Shown: positions 18,791-51,347 of the stretch, piece by piece
Numbering within the stretch: position 1 is the first letter of the stretch
Layout: each line of letters begins with the position of its first letter
Virus record (IMG/VR): IMGVR_UViG_3300045988_151230
Direction: 5' to 3' (one strand)
Length of the DNA stretch: 64,000 nt
Source: a virus
Lineage: Duplodnaviria; Heunggongvirae; Uroviricota; Caudoviricetes
The notes under the pieces: model-generated
The model's database searches: none
Seen by the model: the letters and a program-made list of their open reading frames with translations, nothing else
Told to the model about the DNA's origin: nothing
Made by a program: the position numbers and the translations under genes

Positions 18791-19933
18791 TTACAGGTCT
18801 GCAAACTGGCTTAGAGAAGCCTTATCCACGGTAGAATCGATCTGACCTACCAGATATGTGCTCTGCTCTGCCTCTTGTGGTGCAATTTGCAGTGTGTCGG
18901 TTAACAACCACTTGTTCATCCAGACCAGCGGATCAGTGGTAACTTCTGGAAATAAAGCCTTCAGGCCAAGACGATTCATAGCCAGATTGGTGCGGTATTT
19001 TACATAGGTTTTGAGAATATCCGCGTTTAAACCAATCATCGAACCGTCTTTGAAGAGATAGTCGGCCCAGTTCATTTCTTGTTCGGCGACTGATTTCATG
19101 GTGTCGTAAATGACGTTTTCTTCATCAGCAGCAATCTCTTTCCACAATAAACCTTCGCGACCGGTACGCATGAAGCGGATCATGCGTTCAGTTCCTTCGC
19201 AATGCAGAGCTTCATCACGGGCAATAAAGCGCATAATTTTGGTGTTACCCTCAAGCAACTTCCGTTCACCAAAGGCAAACGTACATGCAAAACTTACGTA
19301 GAAACGGATCGCCTCAAGCGCATTAATGGACACCAACGTGCGGAAAAGCTGACGATGCAAAGGGTATGGCTCCCAGCCATATTCATTTACGTACAGACGC
19401 TCAAATTCCTTCTCACCTAACGACTGGCGCTCGCAGGTCATCCCATAAAGCCTGTCATATTCAGCAGAGATACTGATCGCTCGGTTGATGATTTCTTCAT
19501 CCGTAACAATACCGTCAAAAACAATGCTCGGATCGTCCACCATGCCACGAATAATGTGGGTGTAGCTGCGGCTATGGATAGTCTCAGAGAAAGACCATGT
19601 TTCAACCCACGTTTCCAGTTCAGGAATAGAGATAAGCGGCAGCAGCGTTGCATTTGGGCTACGTCCCTGAACTGAATCGAGTAACGTTTGATAACGGAGA
19701 TTGCTCAGAAAAATGTGACGTTCGTGGTCCCGCAGCTTCGTGTTGAAGTCGATACGATCGCTCGAAATATCAACTTCTTCCGGCCGCCAGAAGAAAGACA
19801 ATTGACGTTCAATCAACTTTTCAAAATCACGGTATTTTTGCTGATCGTAACGTGCCACGTTGACAGATTGTCCGAGGAACATAGGCTCTTTGGTTGCATC
19901 ATTAGCACCCAAACGGAACGTTGAATATGACAT
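18791..19933 (-). CDS. nrdB: ribonucleotide reductase class Ia beta subunit
   Basis: Collinear with E. coli NrdB ([30 protein letters not shown]-terminal SQFADL). Confidence 0.9.
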
Positions 19934-20018: not shown

Positions 20019-21338
20019 GGGGATATCCCCTGAGGGATCCCCAGAAAATTTAGTAAACCATTATCATATTGGTATACCGTTGCTGTAGAACTTTCAGCCC
20101 TGCGTCAAGTGACAGTGTGTTTAGTATGAGTGGAGAATGTCGAATCACATTCTCCGCCAGTTTTAATAACGAGATGACTCGCCTGTGCTTCACTGTATTT
20201 GCCTGATATTTATGATGTATCCCTTTGTTTTCCAGGCTGAAACCGCTTAACCACATAATGATACTGGCTAATGTTGCGATCAGACTCAATACCGTGACCC
20301 GCCCGGATGAATGACTGGCACCAAACCGTAGTCCAAATCCCCAGCGAGGATTTTTTTCATCCCTGAAATTTTGCTCAATTTGCATTCTACGGCTGTATAA
20401 TTTCATTACCTGTTTTGGCGAGAACTCAGTACTGTTTGTGAAAATAAACCATGGTGATTTCCCGGCAGTACGAGCTTTAGCCGTCACCGATGGTCTGGTT
20501 GCTCTTTCCTTCGAGCGTTTAAATCTACGACCTTTAGGCTTACTTTTATAAAGATAAAAATGCCCTTCATGTTGTGCATTTTTATCTCGACCCAGCAGGC
20601 CTTCACCTAAATAAATTGCTGTCGTTGATGCTTTTGTGCCTGAGTCCGACACCTTTTCCCAGCCATTACCAACATTGTAATAATGATTGCCCAGTACCCG
20701 GCAAATATAGGTCCAGCCACGGGAGCGGAGCTGTTGGAACCATCGCCCCTGAAAACCGGCATCTGTAATAACAATGACATCAGTCCCGGGGGAAAAGCAC
20801 TCAGCAAGCGATTCCAGAAAACGCTCATGTACATCTGCATTCGCTGTCTGTGATGATGGAACGACACAACTCATCAACGGTAAAGAACGCCCGTCACATG
20901 CCAGGCTTGCCCGCAAAAGCTGAAAACGAGAGGCATGATAAGCACTCCAGTCAATGAGTATCACAACACGAGACATTCCCCGCGTAATCTTTTGGGTAAT
21001 TCGCTGAAAAATGGTGGAAACCTCATTTTGCAAATGTCGATTCCCCAACAGTCGATCCACCCGCTTTATTTTGTTTTTAACTGATGCCGTACCGGTTAAA
21101 TGACGCCCGATACTGGTAAGTGTGAGGGAAGCGCCATTTATTACAGCATTAGTTGCGTCAATCAGTGATTTTTGACGGTAAAGATGCAAAGGGGCCAGTA
21201 TGTTGTTAAGGAAATTTTGGCATAATGAACGTGCAGGCATAGTGGTGATCTCCTTGAAATTGTTAGCACAATCAATTAGATCACATCTCACTATGCCTGT
21301 CTTGTTTTCTGGGGATTCCTCAGGGGATATCCCCCACC
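20019..21338. mobile_element. IS4-family (IS10-like) insertion sequence, about 1.3 kb; exact ends ambiguous
   Basis: Terminal inverted repeats (C)TGAGGGATCCCCAGAAAA and TTTTCTGGGGATTCCTCA(G); both junctions carry GGGGATATCCCC. Confidence 0.7.
20050..21240 (-). CDS. IS4-family DDE transposase
   Basis: KRVDRLLGNRHLQ and YSRRMQIEQNFRDEK (Y-2-R-3-E-6-K) signature close to IS10 transposase; start taken at MPARSL inside the IS. Confidence 0.8.
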   Translation of the reverse strand: MPARSLCQNFLNNILAPLHLYRQKSLIDATNAVINGASLTLTSIGRHLTGTASVKNKIKRVDRLLGNRHLQNEVSTIFQRITQKITRGMSRVVILIDWSAYHASRFQLLRASLACDGRSLPLMSCVVPSSQTANADVHERFLESLAECFSPGTDVIVITDAGFQGRWFQQLRSRGWTYICRVLGNHYYNVGNGWEKVSDSGTKASTTAIYLGEGLLGRDKNAQHEGHFYLYKSKPKGRRFKRSKERATRPSVTAKARTAGKSPWFIFTNSTEFSPKQVMKLYSRRMQIEQNFRDEKNPRWGFGLRFGASHSSGRVTVLSLIATLASIIMWLSGFSLENKGIHHKYQANTVKHRRVISLLKLAENVIRHSPLILNTLSLDAGLKVLQQRYTNMIMVY

Positions 21339-21343
21339 ATATG

Positions 21344-23659
21344 TCAGATTTTGCAGGCTCCGTCGCACTCATCTTCTGGCTCGACGGCTACAGCTTGCGC
21401 CAGTGGATTCTGCGGTTCGTCGTCATCACGCTTTCCTGCACCATCTCTGGTGTTGTGGTAGTAAAGCGTTTTAACTCCCATCTTGTAGGCGAGAAGCAAA
21501 TCTGACAGTAGCGTCATCATTGGGACTTTATCGCCTTCAAAGCGAGAAGGGTCATAGTTGGTATTGGCTGAAATAGCCTGGTCAAAGAACTTCTGGATGA
21601 TCGCCACCTTTGTCAGATAGCCGCGGTTGTCCGGCATATCCCACAGGTATTCATACTGTTCCTTCAGTTTTTCAAACTCAGGCACGACCATCTTAACGAT
21701 GCCGTCCTTAGAAGATTTCACCGACACCGGGCCACGAGGCGGTTCGATGCCGTTGGTGGAATTAGTGATCTGGCTGGAAGTCTCGCATGGCATTTGTGCC
21801 GTCAGTGTGGAGTTGCGAAGGCCGTATTTTGCAATACGTTCACGCAGTTCTTCCCACGGCATCTTTAACTCAAAGTTGGTTTCGCCACTTTCGTCTAATG
21901 AAGAACGGTAATGGTCGATCGGCAACTGACCAATTGCGTACTTGGTCTGCTCAAACCAGTCACACTCACCTTTTGCTTCAGCAAGTCGGCAGCTGGCATC
22001 AAGAAGGTAATACTGGATAGCTTCGAATGTTTCATGCACCAGTTTATTGCCAGCGGTATCAGAATAACGAACGCCATTCTTTGCCAGGTAATAAGCAAAG
22101 TTGGTTACACCAATTCCCAAGCTACGACGAGCTTTGGCAGGCACTTCGGCTGCCTCCATCGGATAGTCTTGATAATCCAGTAACGAATCCAGTGCAGCAA
22201 CGGCATAGAACGCCACCTCTTTAAGAGACTCCAGTGAACGGATGGCTCCGAGGTTAAAAGCGGATAAAGTGCATAGCGCGATCTCACCGTTCGGGTCGTC
22301 GGTAAATGCCAGTGGACGGGTGGGTAGGGTGATCTCCATACACAGGTTTGACTGGCGGACAGGTGCAAGAGCAGGAATGAAAGCGCCATGCTCATTAATA
22401 TGATCGACGTTCGCAATATAAATTCGGCCCGTGGACGCTCGTTCCTGCATCAGAGATGAGAACAGCTCAATGGCAGGTACTGACTTCTTGCGAATTGAAT
22501 CATCGGCTTCGTATTTATGGTACAGCTTTTCAAACAGCTCCTGGTCTGTGAAGAAGGCTTCGTACATATCAGGCACATCATGCGGGCTGAACAGAGTGAT
22601 GTTCTCGCTTCTGACGAGTCGACGGTACATTAGACGGTTACTCATGACGCCGTAATCAAGATGGCGAACGCGGTTTTCATCAATACCACGGTTATTTTTC
22701 ACCACCAGCAGACTTTCAACTTCAAGATGCCAGATCGGGTAAAACGCTGTTGCTGCGCCACCACGAACACCACCTTGCGAACAAGATTTAACAGCCGTCT
22801 GGAAATGCTTCAGGAATGGAATAACTCCGGTATGGGTGGCTTCACCATTGCGGATCTCGCTGCCCAGCGCACGGATACGGCCAAAACCAATACCAATTCC
22901 AGCACGACGTGAAACGTAGTCGATAATTGCGGCTGAAGCTGCACTAATCCCTTTCAGACTATCGCCAGACTCAATCAGCACACAACTGGAGAACTGACGG
23001 GTTGGAGTACGGACGCCGGCCATGATTGGTGTGGGCAGAGACAGTTTGAACGTACTTGTAACGTCATAGAAACCTTTGACCATCTCCATACGTGTTTTGC
23101 CAGCGCAGTCGTCTTCCCAATTCTGGAACAGACACATGCCTACCAGCATATAGATATGTTGCGGCCCCTCATGAATCTCACCAGTAACACGGTTTTGAAC
23201 GAGGTATTTGCTTTGCAACTGCACCGTAGCTGCATAGCCAAAAAGATCGTCACGTTTCGGCTTAATGTAATTGCCGAGTTCTTCGATCTCTTCAAACGAA
23301 TAATGTGTCAGCAAATCCTTGTCATAAACGCCCTTGTTAACGTTCTTGACAATGTGTTGGTAGAAGTTCGGATAGTCGTAACGACCGAAGGCATCTTTGC
23401 GGATTTTAAAAATGTTCAGGCGGGCAGCCACCTGTGAGTAATTTGGTGCTTCTGGTGAGATCAAATCAGCGGCAGATTTAACCAAAGCCTCATGCAACTG
23501 GCTGGTGGTCATCCCATCAAAAATGCTGGCCGCAGCTCCCATTGCTACAGCGGATGCGCTTACACCACGAATGCCTTCTACGCCATACATTACGACGCGG
23601 TTGTATTTTTCTTCGGATAACGGCTCTGTTTGGCCGTTACGTTTTACGATGCTTATCAT
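21344..23659 (-). CDS. nrdA: ribonucleotide reductase class Ia alpha subunit
   Basis: 771 aa, collinear with E. coli NrdA including the C-terminal redox tail ending CDGACKI. Confidence 0.9.
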   Translation of the reverse strand: MISIVKRNGQTEPLSEEKYNRVVMYGVEGIRGVSASAVAMGAAASIFDGMTTSQLHEALVKSAADLISPEAPNYSQVAARLNIFKIRKDAFGRYDYPNFYQHIVKNVNKGVYDKDLLTHYSFEEIEELGNYIKPKRDDLFGYAATVQLQSKYLVQNRVTGEIHEGPQHIYMLVGMCLFQNWEDDCAGKTRMEMVKGFYDVTSTFKLSLPTPIMAGVRTPTRQFSSCVLIESGDSLKGISAASAAIIDYVSRRAGIGIGFGRIRALGSEIRNGEATHTGVIPFLKHFQTAVKSCSQGGVRGGAATAFYPIWHLEVESLLVVKNNRGIDENRVRHLDYGVMSNRLMYRRLVRSENITLFSPHDVPDMYEAFFTDQELFEKLYHKYEADDSIRKKSVPAIELFSSLMQERASTGRIYIANVDHINEHGAFIPALAPVRQSNLCMEITLPTRPLAFTDDPNGEIALCTLSAFNLGAIRSLESLKEVAFYAVAALDSLLDYQDYPMEAAEVPAKARRSLGIGVTNFAYYLAKNGVRYSDTAGNKLVHETFEAIQYYLLDASCRLAEAKGECDWFEQTKYAIGQLPIDHYRSSLDESGETNFELKMPWEELRERIAKYGLRNSTLTAQMPCETSSQITNSTNGIEPPRGPVSVKSSKDGIVKMVVPEFEKLKEQYEYLWDMPDNRGYLTKVAIIQKFFDQAISANTNYDPSRFEGDKVPMMTLLSDLLLAYKMGVKTLYYHNTRDGAGKRDDDEPQNPLAQAVAVEPEDECDGACKI

Positions 23660-33923: not shown

Positions 33924-36263
33924 TTACTCTTCTACTGACTCGGTGGGGTTGTCTTTTGCTCTTCGGTCGTCGATTGCCTGCAAAGCCGCAATGATTTCAG
34001 CCAGTGGCTTCTCCCGATACATCTCGACGATCTGCGATTTGGTGTATTTCTTGTCACCAATTTCAACTCGCCCGCTGGCGTTCTTTGGCAGGTATCCTTC
34101 TTCCAGCATGTACTCGACGAGCGATTCGATAACGTCGAGGCCACGAGTAGGATCGAAGTAGAATTTCCAGGTGCATTTGCCATACGGTGGTGCAACTTTG
34201 TTTTTGATGCATTCTGCGCCTACGTCCTGGCCGATCTTCTCTTTACCATCCTTCATCACCGATGCACCAAGACGGATACGTACAGAAGCGTAGAACTTCG
34301 GTGAATCTCCACCTGGCGACGTAGTAGGGTCGCCAAACATTACACCGATTTTTGTGCGAACCTGATTCAAGAAGATGATGCAGGCGTTGTATTTGCGTGC
34401 CCACAAAGCCAGAGTAGGGAAGTTCGCACTTGTCGCACGAGCCAGTGCCGTATTGTCGTTCATGTTTAGCTGATCTTTGTCTTTGGCAGTGCCTTCAGCC
34501 ATCTTTTCGAACTTCTCGGCTTTGGAGTTCGGAACCATAGACGCAAGTGAGTCAGCCACGATACAGATAGGTGCTGATTCAGGGATAAGCTCTTCATCAC
34601 GTACCAATTTAAGTATTGTGCCGATCAACTCTACAGAGTCTTCGAAGGTGTCAGGCTGCTTGTATACCCACTGACCGTCATCCTCATCTGCGTTCAGGCC
34701 ATTGGCTACAGCCAGGCCAACGTCAAAACTGTTTTCATGATCGAGGAATACCGCCAGACCATCTTGTTTTTGAGCGGAGATCATCGCTGCTGTTGCAAGG
34801 AATGTGTTGTGGCTGATAATCCCGTTAGACCAGAAAGAGTGTGTTTCCGGCATCGCTACGTCGAACGTTGGTGCTTCACCTTCCTCAATAGCCACGACTT
34901 CGTCGTAGAACAAGTTAGAGCCAATTACCGCTGCCAGTTGTGCAAACAGATGCTCGTTAAAACGATTCTTTCTGCCAATGAAGGAGACATAGATTTCTCG
35001 CAGTTTGTCTATTCCGACACGATCGCCGCGGCCAATAACGTGGTCTACCAGAGCGTAGTCTTCACGGGTGGTCTTGGTGAGCGACTCGTAGAGTGATTTC
35101 ACTAAGCCGCTGATGTGCGGAACATAGCCTGAGTAAGTGCGGTCAAAACCAATGTCCCGTTTGGTTGCCACTGATAAACGTGCCGGAGATTCGAAACCAA
35201 TCGTTGACAGAAAAAGGTCGTAATTAGAGCCACTGAATGACAGCCGGTAATATGTATTTTCATAACCCGCGACGTGTTTTTCAGAGATAGTTGACGTAAT
35301 CCCCAGATTCAGGAGCATGAGGCGAATTTGCTGTAGCAGCAGCCCACTCGCGCTCACAACCTCAATGCAGCGACCATCATTGACGTGGCATTCCAGCTCA
35401 AAGTAGCCGCGAAGGAATGCAATTTGAGCCTCGCTATTGGCGCGACGCACACTCAACGGAACCTGCTTGCCAGCAGCTTTCTCATACTCCAGACCATATT
35501 CTTTAAAAAGCAGCGAACGCACCTCTTTGCTAAACAGCACATGGTCTTCCGAGCCGTTATGTTTTCTCGTAACTGGCATCTTGTCTGATACCAGCGAAAT
35601 GAGGCGGTAGTACTCATCCTTGATGAAAGGATCTGTGTTAGAAAAATTCACTGAATTTTCAGAGGCCACGTATCCGTCAGCAATTAAATAGCCCATCAGT
35701 TTTGCGATATTGGCATCCAGGTGCTGATCGCCGAATTGATGTGTGCCAACCATTGAAGGAATCGTGTCGCCTACACTGATTTTTTCAGCATGTCGCCAGA
35801 CGACATTACCTAAGTCGTCAACCACACGGATTGGGTGACGGAACGTAGCCTCGATATAACCGCCTGATGCCAGCTTAATACGCTTGAATTTGCGACGGTT
35901 GTTCCATGTCAGGTGTGAGGTCTTCTCTATCACGCCATTTTCATTGATGAGTCCAACGTTATGCTCTACATCGCGAGTAGTGCATGTCGCTTTGTACCCT
36001 TCAATCTCAAACAACTCTTTCACTGTTACCATTCCACGCTCCGTCAGCAGCATGGTGTCTGCGGTAACACATTTCCCTGCACTTGGAGGACCGAATACTT
36101 CGACGATACGACCACATGGGAAGCCGCCATCGTAACGACCGGAAATAGCTTTGTTTAACGGTGGAAAGCCTGTATCAATCCAATGAGTTACTTTCTGAAT
36201 TTCGTCGTTGCTACCGATTTTCTTTTTCAGAGCAAGTGCCAGTGCGGATTTTCCTTTTGCCAT
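33924..36263 (-). CDS. recA: RecA recombinase interrupted by an intein
   Basis: Exteins align with RecA (GRIVEVFGPPSAGK ... IFLNQVRTKIGVMFGDPTTSPGG ... KNKVAPP); the Walker A is split after GK. Confidence 0.8.
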   Translation of the reverse strand: MAKGKSALALALKKKIGSNDEIQKVTHWIDTGFPPLNKAISGRYDGGFPCGRIVEVFGPPSAGKCVTADTMLLTERGMVTVKELFEIEGYKATCTTRDVEHNVGLINENGVIEKTSHLTWNNRRKFKRIKLASGGYIEATFRHPIRVVDDLGNVVWRHAEKISVGDTIPSMVGTHQFGDQHLDANIAKLMGYLIADGYVASENSVNFSNTDPFIKDEYYRLISLVSDKMPVTRKHNGSEDHVLFSKEVRSLLFKEYGLEYEKAAGKQVPLSVRRANSEAQIAFLRGYFELECHVNDGRCIEVVSASGLLLQQIRLMLLNLGITSTISEKHVAGYENTYYRLSFSGSNYDLFLSTIGFESPARLSVATKRDIGFDRTYSGYVPHISGLVKSLYESLTKTTREDYALVDHVIGRGDRVGIDKLREIYVSFIGRKNRFNEHLFAQLAAVIGSNLFYDEVVAIEEGEAPTFDVAMPETHSFWSNGIISHNTFLATAAMISAQKQDGLAVFLDHENSFDVGLAVANGLNADEDDGQWVYKQPDTFEDSVELIGTILKLVRDEELIPESAPICIVADSLASMVPNSKAEKFEKMAEGTAKDKDQLNMNDNTALARATSANFPTLALWARKYNACIIFLNQVRTKIGVMFGDPTTSPGGDSPKFYASVRIRLGASVMKDGKEKIGQDVGAECIKNKVAPPYGKCTWKFYFDPTRGLDVIESLVEYMLEEGYLPKNASGRVEIGDKKYTKSQIVEMYREKPLAEIIAALQAIDDRRAKDNPTESVEE
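34806..36071 (-). other. intein (about 422 aa) with LAGLIDADG-type homing endonuclease, inserted in the RecA P-loop
   Basis: Starts with Cys after GPPSAGK, ends with His-Asn before Thr; internal LMGYLIADGYVA and FLRGYFELE blocks. Confidence 0.7.
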
Positions 36264-36265
36264 GA

Positions 36266-36538
36266 TCAGGCTCCTTTTGTTTCGTTGATTCGTTTTAAAG
36301 CGGCGGATTCGTCGAATACAATCGCATCGTGATTAAGGAGTCTGGATACACGAGCGAGGATTTTTACGACCTGCTCGCTGACTAATCCAAACTCGCGATC
36401 TGTCGCTTTCATTCCGGCAGCGCCCAGAATTGACGGCAGTGCGATGACAGCGTACTCACCGTGATAAAAGACAATCTCTTTTGCCAGTTGGGTGGGGGTG
36501 GTTGTAGCGCCATTAATAATCGATTTAAGCATTAGCAA
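36266..36538 (-). CDS. hypothetical small protein
   Basis: 90-aa ORF between the flap nuclease and RecA. Confidence 0.4.
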   Translation of the reverse strand: MLMLKSIINGATTTPTQLAKEIVFYHGEYAVIALPSILGAAGMKATDREFGLVSEQVVKILARVSRLLNHDAIVFDESAALKRINETKGA

Positions 36539-37527
36539 TACCTTTCGAATGGAAGAACAAACACTTCAAGGTCTTCAAGGAACGAACGGAAATTCAGCTC
36601 GTAGCACAGTTGCTCGAATGCTTTCACGTCACGATTGCCTTTGATTGTTTCGATTTCGGTAGGCGGAAACTTCGTCTCAATCAGGTTCATTAGCGTGATG
36701 TTTCTCTTGAACGCTTCGAGCATTCGACAGCCTGTTTTCTCGTTGAAGGCATTCTTCGCTAGTTTGTTGAAGGCGGTCTTATGGCGTCCTTTGTCAACCA
36801 CGATTGAGCCGTCGTTGATGCCGCGTACCATCGTTGCGACACTTCCCCATTCATGCAGCAGCTCTTTCGCACCGCCAGCACCAATGCCACCAACACCGCT
36901 AATGTTGTCCGATTTATCGCCTTGTAATGCTTTTGCTTCCAAAAATGCGCGAGGAGTAGCGAATCCTGTCAGCTCCGCAAATTGCTCAAAATTAACCTGC
37001 TTGTTTTTGGCGTCTTCACGCAGGCTTACCCAGCTTACGTTTTCGCGAACTAACTGAAGCCAGTCGCTATCGCCTGTTAACAGATAGATGTGTTCAACGG
37101 TTGGCTGCGCTGCCATGCGGGATACCAGCAGCCCGGCCAGATCATCCGCTTCTGCATCTTTTGCAATGAGTTGGGTAACTCCAAGCGCGGTCATCATTTT
37201 GAGGATGTATGGCTTCTGGATAGCAAAGCCTTCCTTCATCTTTTTCATATCAGGATCGTCGTCGCGATTTGCTTTGTAGTCCGGGTAAAAGTCGCGACGC
37301 TTGTCACTAAATCCATCCCAAAGAATCATAGGTCGGGCATGGAGGATGGAGGCATAACGACGGACGTTCTTAACAAAGCCGAAAGCAGCCTGTACTTCCA
37401 TTTCGCCGTTGTGCAATTTGTCAGATTGTTGGTGGTAATAACCCAGGCTATTGCCATCTACGAAGAGATAATTCACCGGTACATTCCTTCCAAAAAGTAA
37501 GGCGTCCGTAGACGCCTTACTGGTCAC
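36532..37527 (-). CDS. 5'-3' exonuclease / flap endonuclease
   Basis: YLFVDGNSL, EADDLAG, LLTGDSDWLQL, GDKSDNISGVGGIG motifs. Confidence 0.8.
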   Translation of the reverse strand: MTSKASTDALLFGRNVPVNYLFVDGNSLGYYHQQSDKLHNGEMEVQAAFGFVKNVRRYASILHARPMILWDGFSDKRRDFYPDYKANRDDDPDMKKMKEGFAIQKPYILKMMTALGVTQLIAKDAEADDLAGLLVSRMAAQPTVEHIYLLTGDSDWLQLVRENVSWVSLREDAKNKQVNFEQFAELTGFATPRAFLEAKALQGDKSDNISGVGGIGAGGAKELLHEWGSVATMVRGINDGSIVVDKGRHKTAFNKLAKNAFNEKTGCRMLEAFKRNITLMNLIETKFPPTEIETIKGNRDVKAFEQLCYELNFRSFLEDLEVFVLPFERYC

Positions 37528-37536
37528 GTAATGGGA

Positions 37537-38565
37537 TTACAGAGAGTCCAGCTCTCTCAGTAGGTCATCCAGACCTTCATCTTCCGTCGCAGATGCGGCT
37601 GCTACAGATGTCGCTGCGACTGCTTCAGACTCTTTGACTGATACTGCAACGGCAGCGGAACTTGCTTCTGGTTTAAATTCAGTTTCAACGGCACGGAGGA
37701 TTTCTTCATCAACCAGACTGGTTGGTTCAGAAGCTGGGGTGTGAGCGGTAGCTACAGCAGTCGCACCCTCCGTATGACCAGTGACAGAGCCAAATCCAGG
37801 TAGTGCCGCAGCCGATGTTTTCGCGGTTGAGGAAATTGCTGGTGCAGATGCTGCGGCAGTTGGTGCAGCGATGCCAATCAGACGACCCATAGTGCGAACT
37901 GTCGACAGAAGACGAGTTTCATCAGCCTGATTTGCGTATGCGATCAGATCATGCTGGGTATTCCAGAATTTATCTTCGATATCGCCTTTGTAGACTTTAC
38001 GCTTAGGCGAGACGTCATATTTGGTATCGCGACCAGAGCCAGTACGTTTAATCAGGAATGCGTAGCCTTCCTCTTTGCTCAGTGGATTGCCGATATCATC
38101 AGCGATGTCTTCGGTGATTGCTTTGCAGATATCATCGAATACAGTAGACGGCAGCTCGATTAACTGGCATTTCTCAGCATCTGCGAAATCCTCACGAGCA
38201 GAAAGAATGCCGTTGACCAGGTAGCGAGGAGTGGCACGCATTTGACCGATGCGTTCTTCCATTGCTTTGTTACCCTTGTGACGAGCGCGACCTTCCATCA
38301 CCATTTCGCATAGCTGACAAGCGCGACCGTGAGTATGTTGCTCACAAATATAAGCGTTGGTTGCTTCTTTACCTTCCTCGTTCTGATACTTAACGTAGTG
38401 CATACCGAAAGTCTGGAAGAACTTACCGTTTGGGTCGTCTTTATTCGGGAAGATGCGGATATAGTTGACGCCGTCTTTTAAGCGAGTCAGATCAACGTTG
38501 TTACCACGTTTGGCGGCAATGTCTTCACGAGTTTTGTTAAGCAAATCAAGTAATGTCTTAGACAT
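37537..38565 (-). CDS. gp32-like single-stranded DNA-binding protein
   Basis: IRIFP, zinc-ligand block CEQHTHGRACQLC, RYLVNG and acidic C-terminal tail DDLLRELDSL. Confidence 0.6.
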   Translation of the reverse strand: MSKTLLDLLNKTREDIAAKRGNNVDLTRLKDGVNYIRIFPNKDDPNGKFFQTFGMHYVKYQNEEGKEATNAYICEQHTHGRACQLCEMVMEGRARHKGNKAMEERIGQMRATPRYLVNGILSAREDFADAEKCQLIELPSTVFDDICKAITEDIADDIGNPLSKEEGYAFLIKRTGSGRDTKYDVSPKRKVYKGDIEDKFWNTQHDLIAYANQADETRLLSTVRTMGRLIGIAAPTAAASAPAISSTAKTSAAALPGFGSVTGHTEGATAVATAHTPASEPTSLVDEEILRAVETEFKPEASSAAVAVSVKESEAVAATSVAAASATEDEGLDDLLRELDSL

Positions 38566-50796: not shown

Positions 50797-50883
50797 TGGC
50801 GGAGAGTAATGGAATCGAACCATCATCGCTTGCGCAATGGGACGGTTTTCAAGACCGCTTGAGCACCATGCTCCCTACTCTCC
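50797..50883 (-). tRNA. tRNA-Ser (anticodon UGA), class II with long variable arm
   Basis: GGAGAGT/ACTCTCC acceptor stem, anticodon loop CTTGAAA, T-loop TTCGATT, encoded CCA. Confidence 0.8.
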
Positions 50884-51100
50884 AATTGTTGTGGTTACCG
50901 GTACTGATCTCCGGCTTAGCGACCCCGGCTACTGACTGCATTGCAGTGTGTGAACTCGCCTCGTGTGTCGCTGGGGCATTTCTTTCCGCGCATCAGTCTG
51001 CGCATCAACCACAACGAAAAGAGCACTGTATGACGTTTGCACGGACTTACGCTTAAAACAGGGCAGTCTCGGCGGTTTTCAATGCTCTTTCCTGTTGTGT

Positions 51101-51176
51101 TGGTGCCGGTTAACGGACTCGAACCGCTGACATCCTGCTTACAAGGCAGGCGCTCTACCAACTGAGCTAAACCGGC
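51101..51176 (-). tRNA. tRNA-Thr (anticodon UGU)
   Basis: GCCGGTT/AACCGGC acceptor stem, D-arm GCTCAGTTGGTAGAGC, anticodon loop CTTGTAA, encoded CCA. Confidence 0.85.
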
Positions 51177-51180
51177 AATT

Positions 51181-51267
51181 TGGTGGGGAGTGATGGAGTC
51201 GAACCACCCGAGTCGCAATGACAGTAGATTTACAGTCTACACCGCTACCTCTACGGACTAACTCCCC
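51181..51267 (-). tRNA. tRNA-Tyr (anticodon GUA), class II
   Basis: GGGGAGT/ACTCCCC acceptor stem, anticodon loop CTGTAAA, long variable arm, T-loop TTCGACT, encoded CCA. Confidence 0.8.
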
Positions 51268-51272
51268 TAAAT

Positions 51273-51347
51273 TGGCGATGGTGGGTGGATTCGAACCACC
51301 GACCAGTTGGTTAACAGCCAACTGCTCTACCGCTGAGCTACACCATC
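51273..51347 (-). tRNA. tRNA-Asn (anticodon GUU)
   Basis: GATGGTG/CACCATC acceptor stem, anticodon loop CTGTTAA, T-arm GGTGGTTCGAATCCACC, encoded CCA. Confidence 0.85.

Follow-up and report, generated by a model that had tools for sequence, protein, structure and literature searches.

What is the insert that divides the ATP-binding loop of a recombinase gene in the virus record IMGVR_UViG_3300045988_151230, and does it move? The record is a 64,000-nucleotide stretch of Caudoviricetes DNA (hereafter the window, whose own numbering is used for all its coordinates) and is part of an SSU5-like phage-plasmid of Escherichia coli. The first-pass annotation, made from the letters alone, described a RecA gene at 33924-36263 split in its P-loop by a homing-endonuclease intein; the coordinates stand, and the strand, which it left out, is minus. 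Residues are numbered on the 779-residue precursor unless intein numbering is stated. On the sequence evidence set out below we are highly confident that the insert is an intein of class 1 with a nested homing endonuclease of the two-motif LAGLIDADG type, that it sits at GPPSAGK|T of the phage-plasmid recombinase, and that it is the intein already catalogued as c2.

The translation places the Walker A motif GPPSAGK at residues 58-64 and runs directly from Lys64 into Cys65, exactly as had been proposed. The insert, earlier put at about 422 residues, is 422 residues long and ends Ser-His485-Asn486, with Thr487 next (Table 1), so that the terminal context that a non-splicing domain would lack, Cys1 and His-Asn, is present at both ends. 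Block A of the intein starts CVTADTMLL, block B reads EATFRHP and holds the TxxH motif (Thr76-Phe-Arg-His79, intein numbering), and block F contains Asp. The LAGLIDADG-like blocks that had been suspected are two motifs, LMGYLIADG and LRGYFELEC, both lying between blocks B and F. The C-extein carries a Walker B-like PICIVADS and an L2-like NQVRTKIGVMFGDPTTSPGG. The reading frame of the window's copy is open across 779 codons, and a ribosome-binding site, AAGGAG, precedes its ATG by 7 nt. Removal of the insert joins GPPSAGK to TFLATAAM, restores GPPSAGKT and leaves a RecA-family protein of 357 residues, whose predicted junction peptide is ...GPPSAGK-TFLATAAMISAQK.

That splicing would restore GPPSAGKT had been claimed from the letters, and nature supplies the corresponding gene. 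A megablast of the region against phage records returned Escherichia phages PhiR41_1 and Cyrano, which contain the intein (97-98% identity), and two records of Escherichia phage CMS-2020a, which match at 99% identity with 72% query cover in two pieces. The CMS-2020a gene corresponds to nt 1-192 and nt 1456-2340 of the window gene, the two pieces abutting, and is without exactly the 1266 nt of the intein (gene nt 193-1458). Its flanks are 99.4-99.5% identical to those of the window on both sides, and its translation is, residue for residue, the predicted spliced product. An uninterrupted, intein-free gene of 358 residues is likewise found in the type member of the group, Salmonella phage SSU5. 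The comparison with intein-free alleles that had been recommended is therefore available at nucleotide precision, and the CMS-2020a empty allele is the strongest in silico support for reading the insert as an intein and not as a domain that the protein has gained.

Profile searches point the same way. Intein profiles, another check that had been recommended, match above their cut-offs: Pfam Intein_splicing (PF14890) scores 44.3 bits on the precursor (2e-11; cut-off 35.8) and NCBIfam TIGR01445 intein_Nterm 35.5 bits (cut-off 24.5). Pfam LAGLIDADG_3 (PF14528) scores 63.4 bits (2e-17; cut-off 22.5) and spans intein residues 215-292. Because the Pfam matches to RecA, Intein_splicing and LAGLIDADG_3 all exceed their gathering scores, the resemblance to RecA and to inteins is not due to chance. 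In phmmer alignments the first LAGLIDADG motif pairs with LLGYYVSEG of PI-PkoII and FLGYLIADG of the TliVMA intein, and the second with FLEGYFIGDGDV of PI-PkoII, where Glu227 stands opposite the catalytic Asp; Asp132 and Glu227 (intein numbering) thus fall opposite the catalytic acids of the PI-PkoII and TliVMA inteins.

An AlphaFold2 model of the intein, computed with nine relatives in the input, has a mean predicted local distance difference test (pLDDT) score of 79.8 and a predicted template modelling (pTM) score of 0.83. Searched against the PDB with Foldseek, the model matches TliVMA best (7qss; E = 2.5e-19, template modelling (TM) score 0.68), followed by the full-length, endonuclease-containing inteins PI-PfuI (1dq3), PI-PkoII (2cw7), PhoVMA and PI-SceI (1vde). 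Mini-inteins, including the splicing domains of Pho RadA and Mtu RecA, rank after these, and the free-standing LAGLIDADG enzyme I-DmoI matches the endonuclease part of the model. All the sequence-level features of a class 1 intein are found in the insert, namely Cys1, TxxH, a terminal His-Asn, Thr+1, a profile match, the Hint fold (as predicted) and an empty homologue, as are those of an intein-nested LAGLIDADG endonuclease, two acidic motifs and an alpha-beta fold within the Hint domain.

The intein has been seen before. Topilina, Novikova, Stanger, Banavali and Belfort (2015, NAR 43:6631; PMC4513877) surveyed RadA and RecA inteins and distinguished five insertion points, of which c is the P-loop. 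Point c holds unrelated inteins, c1 in archaeal RadA, including the Pyrococcus horikoshii (Pho) RadA mini-intein, and c2 in 'bacterial RecA', and an independent invasion of the P-loop site by each was already proposed there. Table 1 of that survey lists c2 inteins (65-486) in eight E. coli strains, two of Enterobacter and one of Salmonella. For one of these strains, E. coli MS 145-7, the plasmid NZ_CP146657.1 carries intein DNA 100% identical to that of the window, in a gene 99.3% identical. Since the coordinates 65-486 are the same and the MS 145-7 intein DNA is identical, the intein of the window is the already catalogued c2 RecA intein, the same element, and its discovery is not ours.

The host protein was called RecA in the first-pass annotation, and that name holds at the level of the family. 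Pfam RecA (PF00154) matches the precursor at 125.5 bits (3e-36) and the spliced product at 145.8 bits (2e-42; cut-off 27), and over the ATPase core the spliced protein shares 32% of its residues with E. coli RecA, in an alignment to E. coli RecA structures that takes in Walker A and the stretch matched to IFLNQVRTKIGVMFGDPTTSPGG. The cellular protein is another matter. The bacterial RecA equivalog profile (NCBIfam TIGR02012) gives 132.6 bits for the precursor and 153.7 bits for the spliced extein and does not reach its cut-off of 325.3; Pfam gives no RecA_C domain hit. The extein matches PHROG phrog_97, 'UvsX-like recombinase', at 1e-91, and the precursor matches phrog_9666 (a 779-position profile of 'unknown function') from end to end. 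The gene is present in 736 PLSDB plasmids (Klebsiella 269, Escherichia 229, Enterobacter 91, Yersinia 63, Salmonella 42, and others) and in 250 of 5426 complete E. coli genomes, where it occupies 252 places on plasmids and none on chromosomes. The host gene is the phage-plasmid's own RecA-family, UvsX-like recombinase and not the RecA of the cell. Cellular recA was ruled out because all 252 of the 252 E. coli matches lie on plasmids, TIGR02012 stays below its cut-off and the gene belongs to a phage recombination module. The Mtu-type 'intein-containing recombinase RecA' (NF007072) was also ruled out, with 100 bits against a cut-off of 1024 and another insertion point.

We infer the route from precursor to recombinase from the established chemistry of class 1 inteins. 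The 779-residue precursor, with its P-loop split between Lys and Thr, would be inactive as an ATPase and recombinase until splicing, by analogy with the Pho RadA intein; a P-loop intein in RadA compromises ATPase activity until it is removed (reviewed in PMC8529194). In an N-S acyl shift Cys1 would attack the Lys64-Cys65 bond, trans-esterification would move the N-extein onto Thr+1 (Thr487), and cyclization of Asn422 (Asn486 of the precursor), aided by His421 (His485), would release the intein. An O-N shift would then leave a normal peptide bond in a 357-residue recombinase, the same product that intein-free alleles encode.

For the step of cutting and copying we infer a course from two sources, the population data and the anatomy of the LAGLIDADG domain. 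An empty allele would be cut at ...GCAGGGAAA|ACGTTCCTT... by the freed intein, or by the precursor, with Asp132 and Glu227 as catalytic residues, the putative substrate being an intein-free allele that carries GGTCCTCCAAGTGCAGGGAAAACGTTCCTTGCAACAGCAGCG. This could occur when two related phage-plasmids or phages share one cell, and repair templated by the intein-containing copy would copy the intein in, along with a few flanking bases. The P-loop DNA of E. coli recA differs from the phage-plasmid site at many positions.

The distribution of the intein bears on this course. Alone it matches 248 PLSDB plasmids at 94-100% identity under nine genus labels (Escherichia 123, Klebsiella 71, Enterobacter 41, Citrobacter 6, Salmonella 1, Yersinia 0, and others), unlike a search with the full gene, in which the majority of matching records fall in the 80-95% identity bands. 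By genus label, with numerator and denominator from separate searches, 0 of 63 Yersinia and 1 of 42 Salmonella plasmids are occupied. Between the window and the Klebsiella plasmid CP034047, DNA identity is 78.6% in the N-extein, 97.0% in the intein and 81.6% in the C-extein; between the Klebsiella and an Enterobacter plasmid the N-extein is 85.4% identical, the intein differs at 2 of 1266 nt and the C-extein at 138 of 885 nt. Across Escherichia, Klebsiella and Enterobacter plasmids, therefore, intein DNA is 97-99.8% identical while the exteins differ by 15-21%. Measured from the window to the alleles of Klebsiella and Enterobacter, synonymous divergence (pS) comes to 0.085-0.089 in the intein and 0.64-0.71 in the exteins, the Klebsiella pair giving 0.085 and 0.71. 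Close empty counterparts are CMS-2020a for the window allele (99.5%) and SSU5 for the Enterobacter allele (96.8-96.9%), and the long, intein-containing allele is found in 114 of the 250 E. coli genomes that have the gene, about half being empty.

The junctions themselves are informative. The flanks GGGAAA|ACATTCCT are common to all intein-containing alleles compared, whatever their background, and when the occupied Enterobacter allele is compared with the empty SSU5 allele, 9 of 34 differences lie within 20 nt of the junction (Fisher p = 1.5e-6). These junction-proximal differences look like short co-conversion tracts, with a predicted length of roughly 10-20 nt. The ratio of non-synonymous to synonymous divergence (pN/pS) is 0.16 for the whole intein and 0.18-0.19 for its endonuclease region, estimates made on small counts (25-26 synonymous and 13-14 non-synonymous changes), and 0.02-0.04 for the exteins of intein-containing alleles, which indicates strong purifying selection on the latter. 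Together the figures say that the intein is much younger in these lineages than its host genes, having moved laterally with junction-precise boundaries, and that constraint on it persists. Low divergence, sharp junction boundaries and constraint form the picture expected of an active homing endonuclease. Base composition was considered as a sign of foreign origin and set aside, since GC content is flat along the gene (0.46-0.51) and uninformative.

Two further plasmid copies are interrupted. In Escherichia albertii plasmid CP043255 an IS3-family-like element of 1163 bp (4080..5242), which has two transposase open reading frames (ORFs), breaks the C-extein of an intein-containing gene at gene nt ~1771, so the recombinase copy there is a pseudogene. 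In E. coli plasmid CP059946.1 the intein match lies in two pieces over 2045 nt rather than 1266 (60873..62917), which implies an insertion of ~780 bp within the intein; no gene is annotated in this part of the record.

Several points weigh against an intein that splices efficiently and homes actively. A full-text literature search found no published splicing, cleavage or homing experiment on the c2 intein. With Thr+1, a weaker nucleophile than Cys or Ser, splicing may be slow or depend on conditions. ELEC in the second LAGLIDADG motif is atypical, standing where PI-PkoII and other LAGLIDADG enzymes have DGDG/GDG, and to judge from this motif the endonuclease could be weakened; the constraint on the intein is estimated from 38-40 substitutions only; and ordinary recombination of a gene segment could in principle also produce high intein identity across lineages. 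The atypical second motif agrees with a reading in which the intein splices and its endonuclease is dead or dying, so that it would be a vertically inherited passenger spread by ordinary recombination and plasmid transfer. The decay of endonucleases does occur in this lineage, as distant relatives at the same site (P0007, P0012 and P0013) have lost the motifs. We nevertheless consider such a passenger unlikely here, given that both acidic residues are retained, that pN/pS stays low in the endonuclease region, that synonymous divergence rises ~8-fold from the intein to the flanking gene, with the breaks at the splice junctions and a short stretch of flank shared, and that long and empty alleles coexist in E. 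coli, the polymorphism that an active homing cycle predicts. Boundaries this sharp, lying at the splice junctions, favour homing over ordinary segment recombination, and homing of the intein between phage-plasmids is, on these comparisons, well supported.

A different use of the same anatomy would be as a recruited switch, in which splicing, and with it the recombinase, is gated by redox state, temperature, single-stranded DNA or induction, like the Pyrococcus RadA intein. The insertion point is indeed that of the Pho and Tsib RadA inteins, in which the native exteins control splicing; Thr+1 together with Cys50 of the N-extein and Cys1, Cys30, Cys228 and Cys235 of the intein could allow slow or redox-sensitive splicing; and the intein persists in the functional isolated phages Cyrano and PhiR41_1. 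Near-identical intein-free alleles are, however, about as common as intein-containing ones, from which it follows that the phage-plasmid does not need the intein, and the intein-extein orientations of the Pho RadA type were found to be sterically impossible for an E. coli RecA precursor (Topilina et al., PMC4513877). A switch is thus distinctly improbable as the explanation of the insert, and a regulatory role through conditional splicing is possible but unsupported. A double role, active homing among enterobacterial SSU5-like phage-plasmids combined with post-translational gating of the element's recombinase through slow or conditional splicing at Thr+1, is a speculative combination to which we give little credence. 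Least of all do we expect a non-splicing domain or a pseudogenizing insertion that has simply inactivated the recombinase. RefSeq mainly names the product just 'LAGLIDADG family homing endonuclease' or 'hint domain-containing protein', and some copies are further broken by insertion sequences, as such a reading would have it; yet the catalytic splice residues are all intact, the 779 codons are open, the gene is annotated as a single coding sequence in nearly all of the ~100 records listed, and the low pN/pS of the exteins in intein-containing alleles is not expected of a dead gene, all of which makes inactivation extremely improbable. The reading that we retain is that of a class 1 intein with a LAGLIDADG endonuclease which would still be homing.

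Relatives of this intein occur at the same site elsewhere. A word-index protein search with the intein gave 13 clusters, mainly fragments and not a census of the family, and the relatives P0004-P0013 (27-45% identity, from metagenomes and genomes) occupy the same GK|C...SHN|T site in other RecA genes. They share with the window intein the insertion point, the signatures of blocks A, B, F and G, and Thr+1; Cys1 is kept in all 6 relatives that span the N-terminal junction, and the Thr and His of block B in all 7 that cover the block. Unlike the window intein, several have degenerate endonuclease domains, the motifs being clearly lost in the three named above. P0007, in which the first motif is the one lost, is set apart also by its host, a canonical RecA that has a RecA_C domain and is encoded on a 550-kb contig. 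P0004, whose intein is 44% identical, lies on metagenome contig ERZ27257820 k141_7541 in the gene order of the window (pol III alpha, gp32, 5'-3' exonuclease, recA); an in-frame TGA replaces the Trp of HSFWSNG in its block F/G (contig 7430..7470), and it is called as ORFs of 478 and 306 residues. The TGA could be a nonsense mutation, a sequencing error or a codon read as Trp. With these relatives the c2 lineage reaches beyond the Enterobacteriaceae, and it displays the usual stages of the homing cycle.

The recombinase gene of the window stands in a phage recombination and replication module (Table 1) that continues with DNA polymerase III alpha; ligase, primase, nrdAB, thyA and RepB lie further out.

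Table 1. Features of the intein-containing recombinase gene and of its neighbours in the window
Feature	Coordinates	Strand	Evidence
Precursor gene, intein-containing RecA-family recombinase, 779 residues + stop	33924..36263	-	ORF list, translation, Pfam, phrog_9666
N-extein, residues 1-64, ends in Walker A GPPSAGK (residues 58-64; 36072..36092)	36072..36263	-	aligns to E. coli RecA GPESSGK
Intein, 422 residues (precursor 65-486), Cys1 to His421-Asn422	34806..36071	-	translation, Pfam, empty allele, AlphaFold2 model
Intein block A (CVTADTMLLTERG), Cys1 as N-terminal nucleophile	36033..36071	-	blocks read in sequence; TIGR01445
Intein block B (GGYIEATFRHPIRV), TxxH motif Thr76...His79	35823..35864	-	sequence; conservation in relatives
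First LAGLIDADG motif LMGYLIADGYV, putative catalytic Asp132	35667..35699	-	LMGYLIADG at intein residues 125-133
Second LAGLIDADG motif FLRGYFELECHV, putative catalytic Glu227	35382..35417	-	LRGYFELEC at intein residues 220-228
Intein blocks F and G (PTFDVAMPETHSFW, SNGIISHN), terminal His-Asn	34806..34871	-	most conserved stretch among relatives
C-extein, residues 487-779, RecA core, opens with Thr+1 (codon ACA)	33924..34805	-	translation, RecA alignment
Small ORF, upstream partner in recombination module	36266..36538	-	ORF
5'-3' exonuclease	36532..37527	-	Pfam 5_3_exonuc_N, 5_3_exonuc; named Exonuclease in phage Cyrano
gp32-like single-stranded DNA-binding protein	37537..38565	-	Pfam gp32 1.7e-66; 'SSB T4 gp32-like' in phage Cyrano
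Gene beyond gp32-like gene	~38.7-39.1 kb		'UvsY recombination mediator' in phage Cyrano's record

Other features of the element were seen in passing. A DDE_Tnp_1 transposase ORF of 440 residues (Pfam 2e-20; 20050..21372, minus strand) lies between nrdA (21344..23659) and nrdB (18791..19933) and overlaps the end of nrdA by 29 nt. In plasmid NZ_CP027358, whose recombinase gene is 99.8% identical, the nrdA-nrdB gap is only 100 nt, so the transposase belongs to an insertion sequence specific to the window's element. Four tRNA genes, Ser(tga), Thr(tgt), Tyr(gta) and Asn(gtt), occupy 50797..51347 on the minus strand, a cluster that is also annotated in NZ_CP027358. In the nucleotide-metabolism block of that plasmid (38782..39258), beside thymidylate synthase, RefSeq names a 'trimethoprim-resistant dihydrofolate reductase DfrA51'; the gene probably belongs to the phage itself and is not an acquired resistance cassette.

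As an intein the insert is one more example of a known P-loop hot spot, listed in the literature since 2015 and found in several hundred records of the databases. What is new here is modest: the phage-plasmid context, the misleading database names and the signature of recent homing between genera. The same 779-residue protein is called 'LAGLIDADG family homing endonuclease' in most PLSDB/RefSeq records and 'hint domain-containing protein', 'recombinase RecA' or 'intein-containing recombinase RecA' in others, and naming it after the endonuclease or hint domain hides the recombinase function in hundreds of phage-plasmid records. The E. coli RecA intein of the literature sits on a mobile phage-plasmid, which changes the reading of 'the first E. 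coli intein'. With alleles of 99.5% identity that have and lack the intein on cultivable E. coli elements, and with clear signs of recent spread between genera, the system offers a practical mesophilic setting in which to measure homing and conditional splicing in a natural host. If homing is active, the near-identity of the intein would serve as a tracer of recent co-residence and exchange between phage-plasmids in gut and clinical strains; if splicing is gated, recombination would be tuned to the stage of a life cycle lived as plasmid or phage.

Set beside the c2 description of Topilina et al., which comes without splicing or homing data, the present analysis places the gene on SSU5-like phage-plasmids only, as the element's own recombinase; a full-text literature search found no publication linking the intein to SSU5-like elements or phage-plasmids. 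The Pho and Thermococcus RadA inteins (c1) resemble it in position, where the Walker A loop of a RecA-superfamily recombinase ends, and in having a related Hint fold (Foldseek 4e2t, E ~1e-4). The Pho and Tsib RadA inteins are, unlike it, mini-inteins without an endonuclease, archaeal, chromosomal and thermophilic, and sequence similarity between the window intein and the RadA inteins is very low (phmmer E = 0.1). The Mycobacterium tuberculosis RecA intein PI-MtuI (point a) likewise sits in a RecA-family recombinase and carries a LAGLIDADG endonuclease, but it and the M. leprae RecA intein (point b) are inserted at residue 252 or ~205-211, at the monomer-monomer interface of a chromosomal recA, whereas the window intein is in the P-loop. 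In architecture the closest systems are TliVMA (7qss), PI-PfuI (1dq3), PI-PkoII (2cw7) and PI-SceI (1vde), in which a Hint domain is again split by a two-motif LAGLIDADG domain. These four are the best fold matches (E 2.5e-19 to 1e-8, TM up to 0.68) and the best PDB sequence matches of the window intein, at a sequence identity of 9-22%, in other host proteins and at other insertion sites.

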